Shown here in pieces: positions 1,283 through 28,893 of a stretch of 35,982 nt of DNA (its first letter is position 1; the number at the start of each line of letters is the position of its first letter). The notes under the pieces were generated by a model. The model searched no databases. It had not been told where the DNA came from and worked only from the letters and a program-made list of their open reading frames with translations. This DNA is from a bacterium (GTDB taxonomy: Bacteria; Patescibacteriota; Minisyncoccia; Phycocordibacterales; UBA9973). The stretch is from assembly GCA_021813175.1 (NCBI GenBank), contig JAKALJ010000002.1, positions 1-35,982 of the forward strand, given 5' to 3'. The translations under genes were made by a program, and so were the position numbers.

Positions 1283-1334
1283 ACTGGTTTAGTCTAGCAA
1301 AGTTGTGAGTATGTAGTCGAATTCCATAAAATTG

Positions 1335-1408
1335 TCCGCCCTCTAGGATTCGAACCTAGGACCCCAGAGGTATAAGCTCTGTGCTCTAACCAACTGAGCT
1401 AAGGGCGG
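1335..1408 (-). tRNA. tRNA-Ile with anticodon UAU (no encoded CCA)
   Basis: The reverse complement reads CCGCCCT-TA-GCTC-AGTTGGTTA-GAGC-A-CAGAG-CTTATAC-CTCTG-GGGTC-CTAGG-TTCGAAT-CCTAG-AGGGCGG-A. This gives a perfect cloverleaf: 7-bp acceptor, 4-bp D stem, 5-bp anticodon stem and 5-bp T stem with a TTCGAAT loop. The anticodon loop C-U-UAU-A-C gives anticodon UAU, and the first pair is C1-G72. Confidence 0.9.
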
Positions 1409-1429: not shown

Positions 1430-3352
1430 CTACCCTTCTATAACAACCTCCGGCTCCTCTTTTTTCTTCAGCATTATGCCGTGGGCCACCAAGATTTTTT
1501 CATATTCATCCTGCTCCAGAGTTTCCACTTCTATCAGTTTTTTGGCAATAGCTTCAAAGACTTTTTTATGCTCCTTCAGCGCTTTTTCCGCCGTCTTGAT
1601 GCCGTTGCCGATAATTTTAGAAACTTCCGCGTCAATTTTTGCCGCTACCGCTTCGGAATACTTATCCTCGCGCATCTCTCCCCAAATCGGTTTTCCTTCA
1701 CTGGGGGTGAGAGATATCGGCCCGATGGCACTGCTCATGCCGAAGCGGGTAACCATGGCCCGAGCTAAATTGCTGGCCATTTCCAGATCGCTTGAGGGGC
1801 CGGTGGTAATATCCCCGAACATGATTTTTTCCGCCACATATCCGCCCAAGGACATGGCAATGTCATCTATAAATTCCTTCCTGGACTGCAGTCGGCGTTC
1901 TTCCAAAGGAAGTTTTAAAGTATAGCCTCCGGCCCGTCCGCGGGCGATAATGGAAACCTTATGCACCGGATCGGCGTGGGGCAAGACCGAAGCCACGATA
2001 GCATGTCCGGCTTCGTGATAGGCGGTGATTTCTTTTTCTTTCTTTGAAAGCAGGTGGCTTTTGCGCTCCGGCCCGAGCATCACTTTTTCAATGGAGCGGA
2101 TCAAGTCAAATTGGAAAACTTTTTTGCGATTCTCCCGGGCCGCCAGAATGGCGCCTTCATTCATGAGCGAATACAGATCCGCTCCTGAAAATCCGGGAGT
2201 GCGCTCGGCGATAAGTTTTAGATTCACGTCTTCGGAGAGAGGCTTTGACTTGGCGTGGATTTTCAGAATTTCTTCGCGGTCGTTTCGGTCCGGCAGATCC
2301 AACACCACTTTGCGATCAAAGCGTCCGGGCCGAATAAGGGCGGGGTCCAACACATCACCCCGGTTGGTGGCCGCCATCACCACGATTTTTTCATTCGGCT
2401 CAAAACCGTCCATTTCCACTAAAATTTGATTGAGAGTCTGTTCTCGCTCATCGTTCCCTCCGCCGAATCCGCCTCCCCGAGTGCGGCCGATGGCGTCTAT
2501 TTCGTCGATAAAAATTATGGCCGGGGCGGATTTCTTGGCATTCCGAAACAGATCGCGCACCCTGCTGCTTCCGACCCCCACGAACATTTCCACAAATTCC
2601 GAACCGGAGATATTAAAGAAAGGGACGCTGGCCTCTCCGGCTACCGCCCGAGCCAGCATAGTCTTGCCGGTACCGGGCGCTCCGGTCAGAATCACACCCT
2701 TTGGGATACGGGCTCCGATGTCCAGGAATTTTTTGGGGTTTTTCAGAAAATCCACTATCTCCTTCAGCTCTTCCTTCGCTTCTTTGCACCCGGCCACGTC
2801 TTTGAAGGTGATGCGGTTGTTGGTGTCCGAAGGATCGGTAATGCGCGCCTTGGATTGGCCAAAAGTGAAGGCCTGCATGCCCGCCCCTTTCACTTGCCGG
2901 GAAATATACCAGAAAAAAATGACGATAAAAATGATGGGTAAGAGATAGGGCAGAATATTAAGAGTCCAATAACCAAAACCGTCTTGGTTTTGAATTGAGA
3001 GTTCAGTGGAATCAAGCGCTTGTTTGCTTACTCCGTAATTGGCTAAGGTGGCGGAGAGAGAGGCCTCCGTTTCTTTTTTGGAATTTTTTACTTCCTTGTC
3101 TTTGTAGAGCACAGTCAGGTCGTTCCCTTGCACCGTTATCTTGGAAACCTTGCCGGCGGAGACGTCCGCGGCCAGCTGAGAAATCGGAATCACGGGATTG
3201 CCCTCGGAAGCGCCGGAAATCAGGAGATATACGGCGATGATGACCATAAATATCAAGATCACCGAAGCGATACTGCCGGCCATGCCGGGCCCCTTGAGAG
3301 GTTTTTTTTTCCCGTCGTCTTTTGGCTTAGGGTTCATAAGATTAAGGTCCAT
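1430..3352 (-). CDS. ftsH: ATP-dependent zinc metalloprotease FtsH
   Basis: 640 aa with two N-terminal TM segments, AAA+ Walker A GAPGTGKT, Walker B IIFIDEID, and the zinc motif HEAGHAIV. Confidence 0.97.
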
Positions 3353-3413: not shown

Positions 3414-3860
3414 ATGGCTAATTACGCGGAAAACAAAAAAACCCGGTTTGAGTACGAGATTCTGGAAAGATACGAAGCGGGCATAGAGCTCTCCGGCATG
3501 GAGACAAAATCAGCGCGCGAGGGCAAGATGTCCTTGGAAGGTTCTTTCATAATTATCCGGGGAGGAGAAGCATTTCTGATTAACGCCAACATTACTCCCT
3601 TCCAACCGAGAAACGCCGGCGCGGATTATGACCCGCTCCGCAACCGCCGACTGCTCTTGACCAAAAAAGAAATTTTTGAGCTCGCGTCCGTAGAAAAGAA
3701 CAAAAGTTTGACAATTGTGCCTCTGTCGGTGTATAATAAAGGCAAGAAGATCAAGCTCAGTATCGCTATTGCTCGCGGCAAGAAGAATCATGACAAACGC
3801 GAAAGCATAAAGAAGCGCGATACGGAACGCGAGCTTCGTAGAACTTTGAAAGATTACTGA
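3414..3860 (+). CDS. smpB: SsrA-binding protein SmpB
   Basis: 148 aa. The N terminus NKKTRFEYEILERYEAGIELSGMETKS and the basic C-terminal tail are typical of SmpB, and tmRNA lies immediately downstream. Confidence 0.93.
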   Translation: MANYAENKKTRFEYEILERYEAGIELSGMETKSAREGKMSLEGSFIIIRGGEAFLINANITPFQPRNAGADYDPLRNRRLLLTKKEIFELASVEKNKSLTIVPLSVYNKGKKIKLSIAIARGKKNHDKRESIKKRDTERELRRTLKDY

Positions 3861-3883
3861 CACTGAATACGTCAATATGGCAC

Positions 3884-4038
3884 AGCAGTAGGAAAAGATA
3901 ATGCCCTGCTCATCGCGCGTTCCGGCCTGCTGGCCGGCCGCTATGCTCGTCGCTCGAAGAAAATTATGGTCGGAGTACCTCCCTAATTTTCTAAGCTCCT
4001 GCGCAATGATTCGCCGAGCATTATCTTTTCCTACTGCT
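3884..4038. repeat. Nested palindromic intergenic element, copy 1
   Basis: A perfect 21-bp outer stem (3884-3904 agcagtaggaaaagataatgc / 4018-4038) encloses three inner parts. These are hairpin ccggcc-tgct-ggccgg (3922-3937), the core gctcgtcgctcgaagaaaatta, and taattttctaagctcctgcgcaa. Both core segments recur almost identically at 7973-8053. Confidence 0.85.
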
Positions 4039-4061
4039 TACCGAAAAAACAATAACCTCAC

Positions 4062-4476
4062 GGGGATGCCAGGCATAGACAAAAGGCCTGCTCGCCCGAA
4101 TGCATGCCGAGTATGAGCGCAAACTCGCTAAACTTCGCTCAAAACGTTAATTGCAAAATTAACCGCTAAGGCCAAAGCTCTGGTCTCTCCGTACTTCGGT
4201 GCGAAGGACTTCGCTTTCGCTCCGGCTTTCGTTTAAGAAGGCCGGTGTCTCCCCTCTCTACTTCCGATAAAGAGGGAAAGGCATAACATTATCGGAATAG
4301 GAAGAGATTTTTTCCTGGTCTCTCTCCAAATCCGCCAGCTGGCGGATAAGGAATCGGCTTTCGGATATTTGGCTCGCTTCTGAATCCGGGAGCTTAAAAC
4401 CGCAAAGCGCGCTACGCATGTAGACTTTCCGGCGGCACTCTTTTGCACGGGGATTCAATTTCCCCCATCTCCACCA
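4062..4476 (+). ncRNA. ssrA: tmRNA (SsrA), about 415 nt
   Basis: The 5' GGGGAUG pairs with 3' CAUCUCC, including a G3-U70 wobble, followed by A-CCA (4473-4476). The T-arm is GGGGA-UUCAAUU-UCCCC, and the gene follows smpB. The likely tag frame starts at GCA 4153 (preceded by UUAAUU) and ends at TAA 4234-4236, giving AKLTAKAKALVSPYFGAKDFAFAPAFV. A shorter resume at GCG 4201 (AKDFAFAPAFV) cannot be excluded. Confidence 0.85.
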
Positions 4477-4519
4477 TAAAAAAAGAAAGACCTGAACGGT
4501 CTTTCTTTTTTTATGGTGG
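4471..4519 (+). terminator. Intrinsic terminator / 22-bp perfect palindrome overlapping the tmRNA 3' end
   Basis: ccaccataaaaaaagaaagacc-tgaac-ggtctttctttttttatggtgg. The GC core gaaagacc/ggtctttc is followed by a T tract. Confidence 0.75.
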
Positions 4520-4564
4520 TACATAAGCGGGAAATTGAATAGCCGGAGCGAGCAAATTTTCCGT

Positions 4565-5684: not shown

Positions 5685-5687
5685 TAG

Positions 5688-5733
5688 CCCGTCCCGCCGC
5701 TATCCGCCGACTGGCGGATAGCGGCGGGACGGG
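5688..5733 (+). terminator. 21-bp perfect hairpin after rplT (no strong U tract)
   Basis: cccgtcccgccgctatccgcc-gact-ggcggatagcggcgggacggg. The inner 16 nt belong to the tccgcc-NNNN-ggcgga hairpin family. Confidence 0.55.
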
Positions 5734-5743
5734 CCCCTTTGGT

Positions 5744-6745
5744 ATGTCTCAAAAAAAGAAAAAAATAGTGACCGTGGGCGGAGGCACCGGGAGCTATACA
5801 GTACTTTCCGGCCTGAAAAATCTTGAAGGAATTTCTCTTACTGCTATAGTGTCCATGGCGGACAACGGCGGATCTACCCGCATCTTGCGTGACGAATTGG
5901 GGGTGCTGCCCCCGGGGGACGTGCGCCAGTGCCTGGTGGCTCTTTCTGAACATTCAGAGGCGGTGCGGAAACTGATGAGCTATCGGTTCGCTCATGGAAG
6001 TTTGAAAAGCCACAGCTTTGGGAACATTCTCTTGGCCGCCCTGGAGAAAGTTACCGGCAGATTCAGCCAAGGGGTGAGAGTGGCCTCGGAAATATTGAAG
6101 GTGAAAGGAGAAGTAATTCCGGTTACCGACAACGAAGCGGATTTGTGTATTTCCCTTACCGGAGGAAAAAAAATAAAAGGACAAATAGAGATTGGGAATA
6201 CCGATTTACAAAAAAAAGGGTTTAAAAAAATTTTTTTCGCGAAGAAAGTAAAACTGAACGAAAGAGCCAGGGAGGCTCTCTTGGCCGCGGATTACGTAAT
6301 CATAGGTCCCGGCACTTATTATGAATCGCTGGTCCCCAATCTGATAGTTCCCGAATTTAAGAAAACCTTGAAAAAGAGCGGAGCAAAAATAATCCTACCG
6401 GTGAATCTAACCAATAAGAAAGGGCACACCCTCTATTGGAAGGCAAGCGACTATGTGAAAAACACGGAAAAATATCTTGGTCGGCAAGTTGACTTTGTTT
6501 TATTAAACAACCAGCCGCCTTCCCTCGCCCAAATACGCAAATATAAGCTCAAAGAGGGAGATGGGGTACTGGTAGAGGACGATTTTTTTGATCCGAGGGC
6601 GGTGCGCAGACCGCTAATTTCCCACGCTTTAATAAAATACGACAAGAATGATGTGCGGCAAAAATTTAGGAGCTTTATCCGGCATGATTCAAAAAAAATT
6701 GCCAAGAGTGTGGCGGAAATAATAAAAAGGAAGATACCGAGATGA
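5744..6745 (+). CDS. YvcK/CofD-like (UPF0052, gluconeogenesis factor family) protein
   Basis: 333 aa. KIVTVGGGTGSYTVLSGLK...TAIVSMADNGGSTRILRDELGVLPPGDVRQCLVALS matches the YvcK/CofD N-terminal signature. Confidence 0.8.
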   Translation: MSQKKKKIVTVGGGTGSYTVLSGLKNLEGISLTAIVSMADNGGSTRILRDELGVLPPGDVRQCLVALSEHSEAVRKLMSYRFAHGSLKSHSFGNILLAALEKVTGRFSQGVRVASEILKVKGEVIPVTDNEADLCISLTGGKKIKGQIEIGNTDLQKKGFKKIFFAKKVKLNERAREALLAADYVIIGPGTYYESLVPNLIVPEFKKTLKKSGAKIILPVNLTNKKGHTLYWKASDYVKNTEKYLGRQVDFVLLNNQPPSLAQIRKYKLKEGDGVLVEDDFFDPRAVRRPLISHALIKYDKNDVRQKFRSFIRHDSKKIAKSVAEIIKRKIPR

Positions 6746-7913: not shown

Positions 7914-8083
7914 CTGAAAAGCAAGTTAGTCATCTCGAAAAGCACGCATATTCGCCTGCTGGCGAATTGCTCTGCTCGTCGCTCAAGAAAATTAGGGCTA
8001 AAAACATGATCCGAATCATGTTTTTAGCTTAATTTTCTAAGCTCCTGCGCAAGGCTTTTCTCAAAGACTAACTTGCTTTTCAG
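7914..8083. repeat. Nested palindromic intergenic element, copy 2
   Basis: A perfect 18-bp outer stem (7914-7931 ctgaaaagcaagttagtc / 8066-8083) encloses a stack of inner pairings. These are stem gaaaagc/gcttttc, hairpin attcgcc-tgct-ggcgaat (7950-7967), core gctcgtcgctcaagaaaatta, a 14-bp inner hairpin (7997-8028) and taattttctaagctcctgcgcaa. The core matches copy 1 while the stems differ. Confidence 0.85.
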
Positions 8084-10442: not shown

Positions 10443-10540
10443 CCGCTCATCGCGCGTTCGCGCCTGCTGGCGCGCCGTCCGCCTCCGCCTTCGCCAGCTG
10501 GCGAATGGCGAATGGCGAAGGCGGATGGCGGAGGCGGAGA
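10443..10540. repeat. Partial nested element (X module) plus long hairpin built of GGCGRAK heptamers
   Basis: ccgctcatcgcgcgttc + cgcgcc-tgct-ggcgcg (10459-10474) matches 3906-3937. It is followed by tccgcctccgccttcgcc-agct-ggcgaatggcgaatggcgaaggcggatggcggaggcgga, whose 3' arm carries extra tandem 7-mers. Confidence 0.8.
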
Positions 10541-10544
10541 CAGC

Positions 10545-10578
10545 GACCCCGGAAAAAAATATTCCCGACCTGTCCCCT
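10545..10578. repeat. Z repeat, copy A (diverged)
   Basis: gaccccggaaaaaaatattcccgacctgtcccct, compared with copies at 13464-13508 and 24727-24771. It lies 46 nt downstream of the TraD-like stop codon. Confidence 0.75.
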
Positions 10579-10624: not shown

Positions 10625-13402
10625 TTAATTTTCTGCCACCTTTTCGTATCGGGACATAATTTCCGCTTCCACTTCCTCGCGGTCCCGGCCGTATTTCGTA
10701 TAGGAAAGCTCTTTCAAACTCTCTACAATATCGGCATTCCCCTTTTCCGGCGGAAGAGTCCTCATATTAAACGGTTTGGATGGTTCTCCGTTTATGAGCA
10801 TATTCACATAGGCGTTGTAATTCTCCAGCCGGGTGATGTCGTGGGCAGAAAAAGTCGGCTTGAACTTCGGCTCCAAGAACTGGGCGTCCTCGGCCCCTAC
10901 CCGAAACGCCGCTATGGAGCCGACGTTCCCGAACACCGCGTTCTTGATTCCCTCTTCCAACTGATTGATGTATTGGTGGGCGATATTGAGGGAGAGCCGA
11001 TATTTGCGCGCCTCGGACAAAATGGAGGAAATAGAGTCTGTGGTGACATTTTGAAACTCGTCAATATAAAGGTAAAAATCGTTCATCTTCTGTCCGAACA
11101 TATCCACCCGGGACAGGGCCGCCATCTGCATTTTGCCCACCAGTACCAGCCCGATCAGGTTCGCGTTGATATCGCCCAGCCGTCCTTTGGAAAGATTTAC
11201 CAATAGAATTTTCTTCTCGTCCATAATTTTACGGAAATTAAATACCGACTTCTGCTGCAGCACCACCGGACGCATAATGTCGTTGGAAATAAAATTGTCA
11301 AATTTGGAAGAAATATACGGCACAAAGTTAGCCAAGGACTGCTCCCCGCTAGTCTGCTCAGCCGAAACCCAGAATTGTTTGATTATCGGATTTTTACATC
11401 GAGCCAGTTTCAAATCCCGGAAATCTTTGTCCGCCAGAACCCGGGTGATTTCAAGCAGCGTGGAACCCGAATCAGGGTCTTCCATCACCAAAAAAGCGGA
11501 GTTACGGAAGTATTGCTCAAACATCGGTCCCCCGCCCACTTTCATATCAAAGAGCTTGTTGAAAATGTTCATCATTTCGTTCACCACGAAAGTCTTCTGC
11601 TCCGGATATTTCGGGTCATACTCCAGCATATTTAGGCCCATGGGCCGAGCGGTGAAGCTCGGGTCAAAATATATTACGTCCTCCATCCGCTCCTTCGGAA
11701 CGCGAGAGAGAATAGTTTGTATGTCCGTGCCGTGCGGATCTATGTAGCATACCCCGTCTCCGTTTTTGATGTCCTGGGTAATCATATTCAGAAGCACATT
11801 CGTCTTGCCGGTACCGGTTTGCCCAATTACATAGAAATGCCGCATGCGGTCTTCCCTCCCCATGCGCACCTCTGTATCTTTTCCGCGATAGCTGTTTAGG
11901 CCGAGCAGTATGCCCTCCTTGCTCATGGCAAGAGGGGCCGGCGCAATGCCGGACTTGGCTTCGCGGAGTTGGGGCATACTGCCCACTCCCACCGGAAAGT
12001 GAAAAATGGAAGAAAGCTCTTTTAGGTTCAGGGGCAAAACATTTTCCGGAGAAAAAGTCCGGTAGGAAAAATCATGATAAAGATGTTTCAGCTTGCTTCC
12101 GGCACATTCCCGAAAATACAGGGAGTTGCTGGCCGGCTCGGTGAACTGATTGAAGGAAGATTCAATTTCCCGCAGGATAGAATCCGCCCGTATTTTAGTG
12201 GGGGCCGAGGCGAGCACCCGGATGTTTGCTTTCATTACGCTGCTTTTGAGTTTGTTCCCTATTTTTTCCATGGCTCCTTCGTCCACTGCCCGGCGTCCAG
12301 GGGTGCTTAGTTCTTTGTTCTCTTTCGGCTCTTCTTTCTTCTTCACCCCAAAAATTACTTCCTTGGAAATGCGCAGAAAAGCTTTGTTAAACTTATACAG
12401 ATTATCATTGGCATGCTTCACGGACATGCCCCCTTTCACGTCGTCCAAGATTTTATGAAATTCGTTTATGTATTTATCTCCGGCCGGCGCCACTACCAGC
12501 TGGATGGCCGCGCCTTCGCCCGCGCTCGCGAGCTTGGAAAAAACGTTCAGGATAGTGTTCATGGGGTCGTGTTCAATATTGTCGTAGGTCTTGAGAGGCA
12601 TTACGGGCCGTTCGGAAAGTTCCGCGTACGCGCCCACGGCAACCCCATTTGGGCTGAAAATATTGTAATCGTCCTTTATTTCGCGCACTTTGGCGTCGTG
12701 GTAATAAGCCAAAATCTGCTTTTCAAAAAGGGAGATAAATTTATCCGGCACGGCGGCATACACCACCACCTCTTCACTGTCGCTTGAGAGAGCCACCTCC
12801 AGGACGAAATAGTTTTCAAATTCATTGTTCCTGCCCAAGGAAATGGAAGACATGCCCGCGTAAAACTGCTCCATGGCCCCGATGAATTCTTTGAAACTTT
12901 TCTGCTTTTCTCCTTCGTCTTCCGGAGGCGGCAAGGTTATCTCAAAGAGAGTCATGCGCAGAGCTTTGTAAAGAGGGGTTCCCTCTTTGAATGGAAAAGG
13001 AATATTGCCGGTTTTCAGGTATTGGATAAGTATCCGGTGAAAATCATCGTCAATGTGCGGATCGTTCATGTCTTCCGCCACCGACATTGCGTTCTTGATG
13101 CCTTTGGATATGACCACCCCGAGGAGCTCTTCCATAATCGTATCGTGCGCTTCCGGTTTCAGAGCAAGCACTATGCCTTTTCTTTCTTCCTCGGATATGG
13201 CGCTATCTTTATGCAGAGTTTCTTCCAGCGGAATTTTTCTGTATACAGAGAGAACATCCTTGGCCGCCTTTTCGCCCGCGTGTTCAAAATGGCCGGCATC
13301 CATCAGAACTTTCTCCCGGCTGGCCACCCGTTCCCGCAGATACGCAAGCTCCTCTTCCGGAGTCTTGAATTTCGGCATCTCGCTTAATAAAAATTCTTCC
13401 AT
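10625..13402 (-). CDS. TraD/VirD4-like (type IV coupling protein / DUF87-type) P-loop ATPase with a roughly 500-aa N-terminal region of unknown function
   Basis: 925 aa. The C-terminal half carries Walker A HFYVIGQTGTGKTN, Walker B-like FYLYIDEFQNV and ARKYRLSLNIAHQYINQL, as in the TraG/TraD C-terminal coupling-protein domain. No TM helix is visible anywhere. I do not recognise any motif in the N-terminal half. Confidence 0.7.
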   Translation of the reverse strand: MEEFLLSEMPKFKTPEEELAYLRERVASREKVLMDAGHFEHAGEKAAKDVLSVYRKIPLEETLHKDSAISEEERKGIVLALKPEAHDTIMEELLGVVISKGIKNAMSVAEDMNDPHIDDDFHRILIQYLKTGNIPFPFKEGTPLYKALRMTLFEITLPPPEDEGEKQKSFKEFIGAMEQFYAGMSSISLGRNNEFENYFVLEVALSSDSEEVVVYAAVPDKFISLFEKQILAYYHDAKVREIKDDYNIFSPNGVAVGAYAELSERPVMPLKTYDNIEHDPMNTILNVFSKLASAGEGAAIQLVVAPAGDKYINEFHKILDDVKGGMSVKHANDNLYKFNKAFLRISKEVIFGVKKKEEPKENKELSTPGRRAVDEGAMEKIGNKLKSSVMKANIRVLASAPTKIRADSILREIESSFNQFTEPASNSLYFRECAGSKLKHLYHDFSYRTFSPENVLPLNLKELSSIFHFPVGVGSMPQLREAKSGIAPAPLAMSKEGILLGLNSYRGKDTEVRMGREDRMRHFYVIGQTGTGKTNVLLNMITQDIKNGDGVCYIDPHGTDIQTILSRVPKERMEDVIYFDPSFTARPMGLNMLEYDPKYPEQKTFVVNEMMNIFNKLFDMKVGGGPMFEQYFRNSAFLVMEDPDSGSTLLEITRVLADKDFRDLKLARCKNPIIKQFWVSAEQTSGEQSLANFVPYISSKFDNFISNDIMRPVVLQQKSVFNFRKIMDEKKILLVNLSKGRLGDINANLIGLVLVGKMQMAALSRVDMFGQKMNDFYLYIDEFQNVTTDSISSILSEARKYRLSLNIAHQYINQLEEGIKNAVFGNVGSIAAFRVGAEDAQFLEPKFKPTFSAHDITRLENYNAYVNMLINGEPSKPFNMRTLPPEKGNADIVESLKELSYTKYGRDREEVEAEIMSRYEKVAEN

Positions 13403-13421: not shown

Positions 13422-13463
13422 CAACAAGAAAACCCTTCTTTTTTATTTGCTCCTCGGCTCGTC

Positions 13464-13508
13464 AGCCTGCGAGATACCCCGGGAAAGAATATTCCCGACC
13501 TGCTCCCT
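13464..13508. repeat. Z repeat, copy B
   Basis: agcctgcgagataccccgggaaagaatattcccgacctgctccct is 42/45 identical to 24727-24771. It ends 3 nt from the map stop codon. On the minus strand it contains the hairpin cgggaa-tattct-ttcccg. Confidence 0.85.
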
Positions 13509-24726: not shown

Positions 24727-24771
24727 AGCCTGCGAGACACCCCGGGAAAGAATATTCCCGACCTGTCCCCT
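24727..24771. repeat. Z repeat, copy C
   Basis: agcctgcgagacaccccgggaaagaatattcccgacctgtcccct. It ends 10 nt from the rplB stop codon, inside a 130-nt rplB-rpsS spacer. Confidence 0.85.
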
Positions 24772-28871: not shown

Positions 28872-28877
28872 GTTGTT

Positions 28878-28893
28878 TCCGCCAGCTGGCGGA
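28878..28893. repeat. 16-bp perfect palindrome tccgccagctggcgga in the tuf 5' UTR
   Basis: It ends 6 nt upstream of the tuf ATG. The 19 nt at 28878-28896 are identical to 4331-4349 inside tmRNA. Confidence 0.85.

Follow-up and report, generated by a model that had tools for sequence, protein, structure and literature searches.

Intergenic nested-hairpin elements with a conserved core and copy-specific perfect stems in Patescibacteria

The ERIC (IRU) elements of Enterobacteria are imperfect palindromes of about 127 bp that lie between genes in either orientation and form a long hairpin when transcribed; we know of no transposase for them. Here we describe a repeat family, which we call F1, from the spacer between smpB and ssrA, the transfer-messenger RNA (tmRNA) gene, on the patescibacterial contig JAKALJ010000002.1. 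The 35,982-nt stretch analysed is referred to as the window; coordinates given without a locus name are positions in it, and L-numbers (L001, L110 and so on) denote retrieved loci. We favour, with moderate confidence, the reading that F1 is a family of non-autonomous mobile palindromic DNA elements, with a lifestyle like that of REP, ERIC or miniature inverted-repeat transposable elements (MITEs), inverted conservation and no target duplication.

F1 resembles ERIC in being intergenic, in occurring in either orientation, in its length of 110-170 nt and in its sequence conservation across species with differing insertion sites. However, no sequence relationship was found, and ERIC is a single long imperfect hairpin with conserved ends, whereas F1 is a three-way junction whose centre (the junction strands) is conserved and whose ends are private. 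The REP/BIME/REPIN sequences, which are mobilised with RAYT transposases, are GTAG- and CGTC-tagged palindromes (PMC3733652). With these F1 has in common an extragenic position, palindromic form, stems that covary between lineages and a CGTC in the junction strand J2/3; its mosaic build also recalls BIMEs, the module of helix P2 recurring in other elements as BIME motifs recombine. In contrast, REPs are single hairpins of 20-40 bp present typically in hundreds of copies and lack private outer stems, and F1 has three helices and is seen in few copies per genome. Correia elements (CREE/NEMIS) of Neisseria and bacterial MITEs are likewise small, non-autonomous, situated beside genes and polymorphic for presence and absence, and Correia elements are co-transcribed, the duplex of their terminal inverted repeats being cleaved by RNase III; unlike F1, they end in conserved terminal inverted repeats of 26 bp and duplicate a TA target. 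The double-hairpin elements and GC clusters of fungal and algal organelles are also short, mobile, conserved hairpins that reinvade the same intergenic spacers, and again we know of no dedicated enzyme. They differ in belonging to organelle genomes, in measuring 26-80 nt and in having neither a three-way-junction core nor a long private closing stem. Finally, the RNase III stems that form the processing stalks of 16S and 23S rRNA enclose a conserved core in a long helix of lineage-specific sequence and conserved pairing, but such stalks are single-locus and fixed in orientation, whereas F1 is dispersed, orientation-neutral and dispensable at any one locus.

In the window, smpB (3414-3860, + strand; an open reading frame (ORF) whose identical protein matches Pfam PF01668) and the tmRNA gene (4062-4476, +; Rfam RF00023, 111.3 bits, E = 6.8e-43) are separated by 201 nt, which hold copy 1 of F1 on the + strand. 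The 5' arm of its outer stem, the outer part of helix P1 (3884-3904), is the perfect 21-nt complement of the 3' arm (4018-4038), giving 21 uninterrupted base pairs. Inside these lies the inner closing segment CTGCTCATCGCGCG (3906-3919), which pairs partially with 4000-4019 in the minimum free energy (MFE) fold, followed by the P2 hairpin CCGGCC-TGCT-GGCCGG (3922-3937), supported by sequence and fold. The junction strand J2/3, TGCTCGTCGCTCGA (3944-3957), is near-invariant in an alignment of 76 copies and contains the strand TGCTCGTCGCTC (3944-3955). It leads into P3 (3958-3992), a 9-bp helix AGAAAATTA/TAATTTTCT (3958-3966 with 3984-3992) which carries an apical hairpin with a GAGTAC loop (3967-3983) in both fold and alignment. 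The junction strand J3/1, AAGCTCCTGCGCAA (3993-4006), defined from the family alignment, returns to P1. The MFE of copy 1 is -73.1 kcal/mol (z = -7.7), and none of 200 shuffles folds equally well. Sequence and fold therefore confirm the nested helices reported in a first-pass annotation of this DNA, namely the 21-bp outer stem, the TGCT hairpin and the 9-bp helix. No further occurrence of the outer-stem arm sequence was found in the window or in L001. A 71-aa ORF called over copy 1 (3901-4116) is spurious, as its start lies in the private arm.

Copy 2 (7914-8083, +) had been described as the same core enclosed in different but perfectly paired stems, and this description holds. Its perfect outer stem has 18 bp (7914-7931 with 8066-8083) and is followed by an inner helix GAAAAGC/GCTTTTC (7937-7943 with 8054-8060), a P2 of ATTCGCC-TGCT-GGCGAAT (7950-7967), J2/3 (7973-7985, with the TGCTCGTCGCTC-type strand at 7973-7984), a P3 (7986-8038) with a longer apical hairpin (7995-8029) and the same J3/1 strand as copy 1 (8039-8052). 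The 23-mer TAATTTTCTAAGCTCCTGCGCAA occurs exactly twice in the window, against none expected from 100 shuffles, and the MFE of copy 2 (-83.3 kcal/mol, z = -11.8) is again not equalled by any of 200 shuffles. A third, partial relative at 10445-10477 (+) has the P2-type module only, GCTCATCGCGCGTT plus CGCGCC-TGCT-GGCGCG; it belongs to the window repeat family D15 and is 84% identical to 3898-3940. It has the GCC-TGCT-GGC hairpin module in common with copy 1, the module CTGCTCATCGCGCG reappears in it at 10445-10458, and other repeat modules follow. This partial relative indicates that F1 is modular rather than a closed set of two copies.

We next consider how far the family extends. An exact scan of one genome per species, keyed on the 18-mer TTCTAAGCTCCTGCGCAA, which contains the J3/1 strand, returned 99 stretches. 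Some 80 of these also have the 5' strand, and the remainder are accounted for by the approximately 17 chance matches expected for an 18-mer and a few truncated copies. The real matches fall in 54 species-level assemblies, all of them Patescibacteria, labelled Nomurabacteria, Paceibacterota, Parcubacteria or Minisyncoccia together with Saccharibacteria-labelled metagenome-assembled genomes, and mostly Nomurabacteria/Paceibacterota; the highest number per genome, at least seven match blocks in MFWK01, is a lower bound. This spread of the core strings beyond the window excludes the scenario that only two recent duplicates exist. To remove ascertainment bias, a metagenome scan was keyed on the 5' strand TGCTCGTCGCTCAAGAAAA and gave at least 120 stretches; among the matches listed, 96 are real copies, 68 with the exact 3' 18-mer and 26 with one mismatch. 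A search with nhmmer using the F1 core recovered 200 copies. The single match in IMG/VR is a chance one inside a coding sequence, and the PLSDB plasmids and INPHARED phages contain no F1 match.

That the first-pass annotation did not recognise copy 1 as any named RNA family agrees with the Rfam scans: 3861-4061 has no match at E<=10, the window as a whole yields the tmRNA and tRNA only, and no match overlies the F1 element in 13 related loci. (LOOT RNA, present in L034, is an unrelated multi-hairpin RNA.) A literature search that included the core strings and RNA motifs, MITEs and palindromic repeats of Patescibacteria or Parcubacteria found no description, and within the reach of these searches the family is apparently undescribed. 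An 'AATG' subfamily was considered as a marker of a conserved smpB-ssrA site and rejected, as no other element locus adjoins smpB or tmRNA.

Alignment of the 76 copies defines an element with a three-way-junction core of 75-110 nt closed by a terminal helix P1 of 25-35 bp. The inner 10-20 bp of P1 are common within subfamilies and retain a T·C mismatch, a bulged C and recurrent A·C mismatches, while the outer 8-21 bp are specific to each copy. P2 is a 7-bp hairpin of free stem sequence with the loop N-G-C-T, in which GCT is invariant; its 5' module has two interchangeable forms and is also found on other cores. The most constant parts are the junction strands CGAACTGCTCGTC and CTAAGCTCCTGCGCAAGG (J3/1), with J2/3 reading CGAACTGCTCG(TC) near-invariantly across all 76 copies. 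P3 starts from a GCT/AGC base. In the short variant it is a 3-bp stem capped by a CGNC loop, and at the other extreme a long AGAAAATAAT... helix of more than 25 bp, which has a covarying tip, an A-N-T-A loop and sometimes, as in copy 2, extra inserted hairpins. The tetranucleotide CGTC occurs both in J2/3, where it belongs to the invariant strand, and in the short variant, where it forms the P3 loop.

The reversal of the usual conservation, with a conserved core inside private stems, had been noted from two copies and proves to be family-wide. In 56 of the 76 copies the outer arms fit their own partner above the 95th percentile of cross-pairings, with a median local score of 13 for the own partner against 6 for partners of other copies. 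Conserved terminal inverted repeats of the MITE kind are therefore lacking: F1 termini are copy-specific, and sharing is limited to the inner 10-20 bp within subfamilies. Integron attC sites have conserved R''/R' sites (RYYYAAC / GTTRRRY) at their ends, a variable centre and a place in a cassette array next to an integrase. F1, in contrast, is conserved at its centre, private at its ends and solitary between housekeeping genes.

The first-pass annotation had suggested RNA-type helix covariation, and we evaluated the pairing spectrum of the alignment. Across P2 and P3, 97.7% of cells pair, against 78.0% in shuffles and at most 57% with slid partners, and 278 cells show double-sided changes against 75 in shuffles. 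At 0.485, the covariation score exceeds both the 0.116 of shuffles and the values for slid structures, which stay at or below 0.144; 13 of 20 pairs have changed on both sides. Each of the seven P2 pairs has changed on both sides in 16-48 sequences and on one side in 0-2, and the apical P3 pairs covary. G·U pairs, however, occupy only 4 of 532 P2 cells; in P2 and P3 together they number 12 against 14 A·C, with one invariant predicted junction pair left out. In the P1 arms 2031 positions are Watson-Crick, 17 are G·U, 68 are A·C and 133 are other mismatches, with 91 more in bulges, so that the G·U share (17/2249) does not exceed that of other mismatches, and the A·C excess lies mainly at two conserved positions of one subfamily (A). 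P2 hairpins are often perfect palindromes through the loop (AAGCTT, CAGCTG, GAGCTC), and arm indels are mirrored between orthologues, as in L148 (GAAGTTGG/CCAACTTC) versus L123 (GAAAGTCTGG/CCAGACTTTC). The aligned sequences thus indicate covariation that is real but almost solely from Watson-Crick to Watson-Crick, which departs from what an RNA helix under selection usually shows; the covariation itself stands, and its attribution specifically to RNA is not supported, given the rarity of G·U, the mirrored indels, the palindromes and the random orientation described below. Watson-Crick-only changes, mirrored indels and palindromic P2 hairpins fit DNA-level templated copying between the arms.

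These data bear directly on the main alternative, one that we consider possible although unlikely, in which the conserved core would be a functional structured RNA: a small RNA freed from longer transcripts when its long private processing stem is cut, a new self-cleaving ribozyme or a protein-binding RNA. Its copies would then be paralogous genes with compensatory helix change, which would be compatible with mobility. A three-way junction with near-invariant strands, an invariant P2-loop GCT complementary to an AGC in J3/1, and a P3 of variable length is what such an RNA could look like, and compensatory change is strong in P2 and apical P3. The constancy of the strands does not depend on the search key, as 94 of the 96 copies among the metagenome matches listed have at most one mismatch in the 3' 18-mer and J2/3 was not the key in the one-genome-per-species scan. 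Pairing is kept in orthologous copies while arm sequences drift, A·C mismatches recurring on the + strand would correspond to G·U on the - strand, and copy 1 most likely lies within the transcribed ssrA leader. Yet G·U pairs and one-sided intermediates are almost absent, arm indels are mirrored, and neither wobble tolerance nor an orientation bias is seen, 28 of 102 classified copies lying between divergent genes. There is no conserved promoter or terminator at the borders, where the flanks are private; the element is dispensable at a given locus; and two unrelated cores have the same private-stem design. At E<=10, Rfam 15 gave no match to any family, including the hammerhead, twister, twister-sister, pistol, hatchet, hepatitis delta virus (HDV)-like and hairpin ribozymes, nor to 6S, signal recognition particle (SRP) or Y RNA.

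F1 copies fill intergenic spacers, adjoining or slightly overlapping ORF ends. From 170 distinct copies, 102 were fully classified, with 30 between convergent genes, 28 between divergent genes, 26 between co-directional genes in sense and 18 in antisense; orientation relative to the flanking genes is random. Any replication-strand bias is weak and, as the copies are not independent, not decisive: GC skew on the strand of the element is positive for 68 of 107 copies, and 62 of 107 follow the direction of most genes.

Comparison of orthologous spacers provides the history of insertion. Between smpB and ssrA, F1 is present in the window and its 97%-identical relatives L114 and L115, whereas L110 and L111 (SmpB identity 83%) have an unrelated nested-hairpin element, F2, with its own perfect 17-bp stem. 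The same spacer is empty in L116 (2 nt), L139 (11 nt), L117 and L118 (24 nt each) and L112/L113 (50 nt; SmpB identity 81%), and none of the empty spacers of L116, L139, L117, L118 and L112 contains a hairpin. The flanks outside the stems total 46 nt both in the window and in L110, which is the size of an empty spacer. At the site of copy 2, between the RNase J stop codon and the LDcluster4 promoter, L110 has an inverted F1 with different arms and a compensated P3 base, and L139 has an empty spacer of 48 nt. The common left boundary at this site falls on the -35 box of the LDcluster4 promoter, which argues for constraint rather than site specificity. Between rpsT and trx, the spacer is 2 nt and empty in L155, and holds F1(+) in L048, L148, L023 and L123, F1(-) in L072 and L099, F2 in L014 and a plain hairpin in L022. 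Presence/absence polymorphism of the MITE kind is thus found at the smpB-ssrA, LDcluster4-RNase J and rpsT-trx spacers. Together these comparisons show that a few insertion-tolerant spacers are occupied repeatedly and independently, with elements gained, lost and replaced between related species.

Because the orthologous spacers are empty and without a hairpin, the stems are not pre-existing target hairpins. It had been proposed that the element inserts into the loops of existing hairpins; these could be terminators, and the private stems would be what remains of the target. Private stems of 15-21 bp are indeed like the plain terminator hairpins of this clade, and the rpsT-trx spacer of L022 is a plain hairpin. 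We nevertheless judge this reading to be very improbable, since it is contradicted at three sites: the five empty smpB-ssrA spacers of 2, 11, 24, 24 and 50 nt have no hairpin, the 46-nt flank sum in the window and L110 is that of an empty spacer, and the rpsT-trx spacer measures 2 nt when empty. In addition, conservation within subfamilies extends to the inner third of the stem, which is hence the element's own.

The same spacers speak to a further explanation, in which F1 would be a host-domesticated intergenic structure, spread by duplication and retained by selection at each locus. It could then serve as a bidirectional terminator or as an insulator, stabilise mRNA ends or, as a cruciform, bind a nucleoid or topology protein. 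F1 fills spacers and abuts ORF ends, 30 of 102 classified copies lie between convergent genes, some loci retain the element across several species, and the terminators of the clade are perfect 16-22-bp hairpins (4471-4519 and 5687-5734 in the window; L117, L112) whose length is like that of the private stems. However, copies between divergent genes, where no terminator is needed, are as numerous, and orthologous spacers function empty (2 nt) or with an unrelated element. A plain hairpin would also do, leaving some 30 near-invariant unpaired core nucleotides unexplained, and we regard domestication as distinctly unlikely.

Given its position, copy 1 was examined for its relation to tmRNA expression. 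The first-pass annotation had found no convincing promoter before tmRNA; this is correct for the spacer itself, which has no promoter-like sequence, but a consensus sigma-70-type promoter, TTGACA-18-TATAAT (12/12 match), lies inside the 3' coding part of smpB at 3708-3737 (+). Six species with SmpB identities of 75-83% have the same hexamers and spacing regardless of spacer content, including one in which tmRNA begins 2 nt from the smpB stop. On account of this identity it is very probably the ssrA promoter, although coding constraint may add to its conservation. As the promoter is upstream of the insertion, copy 1 would sit in sense in a pre-tmRNA leader of about 320 nt, and the proposal that it is part of an smpB-ssrA precursor is refined accordingly: copy 1 is most likely part of the ssrA precursor leader, a lineage-specific insertion in the 5' leader of pre-tmRNA downstream of a promoter internal to smpB. 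The 5' ends of tmRNA are matured by RNase P, and insertions in the leader would be tolerated because RNase P generates the tmRNA 5' end. The 21-bp duplex of copy 1 is, by analogy, a plausible RNase III substrate.

Two practical consequences were seen at this locus. ARAGORN detected no tmRNA in the window or related loci, although Rfam scores the window tmRNA at 111 bits, and ARAGORN-based tmRNA censuses of Patescibacteria may therefore undercount. Logan contigs with smpB (L007-L010, L114, L115) stop 70-100 nt past its stop codon, inside copy 1; nested inverted repeats evidently break de Bruijn (short-read) assemblies.

F1 is not alone in its design. The F2 family has the same private perfect stems around the core ...TTTAAGGGGTTT-hairpin-TTCAGG-ATTTTTTnAGCnnAAAAAAT-CCGTACCGGCAAAAA; it is seen in L110 (6480-6611), L034 (~5800-5920, -), L014, L064, L158 and L221, and often adjoins F1. 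A third family, F3, also with private stems, has the core AAAATTTTAAGAGTCGTGGGTCCCCTGTCCTTATGACTCCGAGGGCGAAGGCTCAGAAATTTTT and adjoins both F2 and F1 (L064 ~470-560, L158 ~10790-10890, L221). Against Rfam, F2 and F3 gave sub-threshold hairpin-like matches only, and F2 is not in Rfam. That unrelated cores carry private stems suggests that the stems reflect a process rather than the closing helix of one RNA.

Such a process may be visible at the borders. In L023 the stem extends into native sequence, the AAATAA of the rpsT end pairing with a far-side TTATTT, and in L048 AGTAG pairs with CTACT in the same manner. In the window, 4448-4545 is a palindrome with arms of about 43 nt centred at 4493-4497, whose left arm is the functional 3' end of tmRNA. 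Its core, which follows tmRNA, is a perfect 22-bp hairpin (4471-4492 with 4498-4519), and in its right arm the T-arm and acceptor end of tmRNA recur as a degenerate inverted copy (4520-4545); the outer part scores 24, against a maximum of 20 in 500 shuffles. A similar arrangement is present in L117. A source of the private arms was sought in the window, L001, L110, L112, L103 and L107, and the arms themselves were the only matches. Neighbouring F1 copies in L099 have most of their arms in common. As an alternative, which we do not favour, the arms could be carried along with the element from unsampled donor copies.

Template switching at quasi-palindromes is an established mechanism in bacteria, and on the mobile-element reading of F1 it could maintain the complementarity of the arms by hairpin-templated copying at the DNA level. 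The arms would probably have been extended outward into the local flank from a quasi-palindrome nucleated by the element. Copying of this kind would account for perfect private stems and for covariation confined to Watson-Crick pairs, with no need for selection on RNA. The relevant folded form would be a single-stranded or cruciform DNA hairpin, formed also passively in transcripts, and a putative protein would read this hairpin through the junction strands and the conserved imperfections.

Several observations weigh against the mobile-element reading. No direct repeat indicative of target-site duplication was found at copy 1, copy 2, the L110 copies or the rpsT-trx series. Junctions differ at each site examined (...ggcac|, ...ctaaaag|, ...ggcaggc|, rpsT stop codons), and there is no constant flanking motif corresponding to the 5' tetra- or pentanucleotide target of IS200/IS605. 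No transposase, recombinase or nuclease partner was identified in the loci inspected, where no genome-wide search was made; the called genes of these loci likewise include no RAYT (Y1 HUH) gene, again without a genome-wide search, and no ORF flanked by F1 halves, as expected of a cognate autonomous element, was found in the approximately 230 loci retrieved, which were not a systematic genome-wide search. No copies with identical arms were found at clearly different loci, so no recent transposition has been caught. Conservation is highest in the unpaired junction strands and one loop triplet, while the helices and the length of P3 vary freely, a pattern that by analogy is the classic one for the core of a structured RNA or ribozyme. 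Inner P1 retains its bulge and mismatches in many copies, which counts against the reading because unrestrained templated correction would erase them. Read on the opposite strand, the two A·C mismatches that recur in subfamily A would become G·U, and some orthologous copies are old and vertically inherited, which fits a host function too. The origin of the private arms, which we infer, is also a point on this side.

Two loci suggest local rearrangement. In L143 (2735-3140) about 385 nt replace the P3 tip; we considered this as an autonomous element and rejected it, since it is a fragment of a membrane-protein gene (ORF start). The flanks are 100% identical to those of L080/L170/L183, and the replacement is probably a rearrangement or an assembly chimera. 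L136 (3380-3640) and L211 (5740-5980) have flanks that are 94-98% identical; L136 has a solo left arm, 33 nt and then F1 in the opposite orientation, which we read as evidence of local rearrangement or re-insertion at an occupied site.

Other repeats of the window are built from related pieces. A 45-nt repeat, AGCCTGCGAGAYACCCCGGGAAAGAATATTCCCGACCTG..., occurs in three intergenic spots (10534-10578, 13464-13508 and 24727-24771) and resembles the 3' half of F2. At 13455-13470, GGCTCGTCAGCCTGCG precedes it and matches the F1 short variant. The combination suggests that the intergenic repeats of this genome are mosaics of common modules. GC-rich hairpins with a CAGCTG centre (for example ATCCGCCAGCTGGCGGAT) lie at 4330-4347, inside tmRNA, and at 10491-10506 and 28876-28893; they have a stem-NGCT-stem design like that of F1 P2.

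Further features of the region were recorded. The ftsH gene upstream of smpB contains an intein with a LAGLIDADG domain in L110 (2591-5821) and L118 (1-1438), whereas ftsH of the window (1430-3352) is without one. A tRNA-Ile gene with the anticodon TAT, uncommon in bacteria, is present at 1334-1408 (-); in most bacteria AUA is read by a lysidine-modified CAT anticodon. On the same contig upstream of the window, L001 contains a partially duplicated tRNA 3' end at a distance of about 170 nt from the intact gene (2015-2035 and ~2190-2280, -); a structured GC-rich repeat separates the two, suggesting an old integration or rearrangement.

Patescibacteria, the Candidate Phyla Radiation (CPR), have some of the most streamlined genomes known and are thought to be poor in repetitive DNA. 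Yet at least three families of nested-hairpin elements of 110-170 nt are found across dozens of species, including, most likely, in the leader of the essential tmRNA. Their invariant centre and private perfect ends, the reverse of MITEs, suggest either an unrecognised RNA or single-stranded DNA recognition fold or a DNA mechanism that builds palindromes. F1-type covariation mimics RNA structure without G·U, which is a caveat for RNA-motif discovery pipelines, and F1 elements offer easy markers for population genomics of Paceibacteria. More speculatively, and in our estimation rather unlikely, the F1 core, and perhaps those of F2 and F3, could be a new catalytic or protein-recruiting fold on a transposase-less palindromic element, with stems made afresh at every locus by hairpin-templated inverted duplication of the flank; a small self-cleaving ribozyme or a small RNA released by RNase III would be candidates. 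If true, small elements in the streamlined genomes of Patescibacteria would propagate, and build their stems, in a new way.

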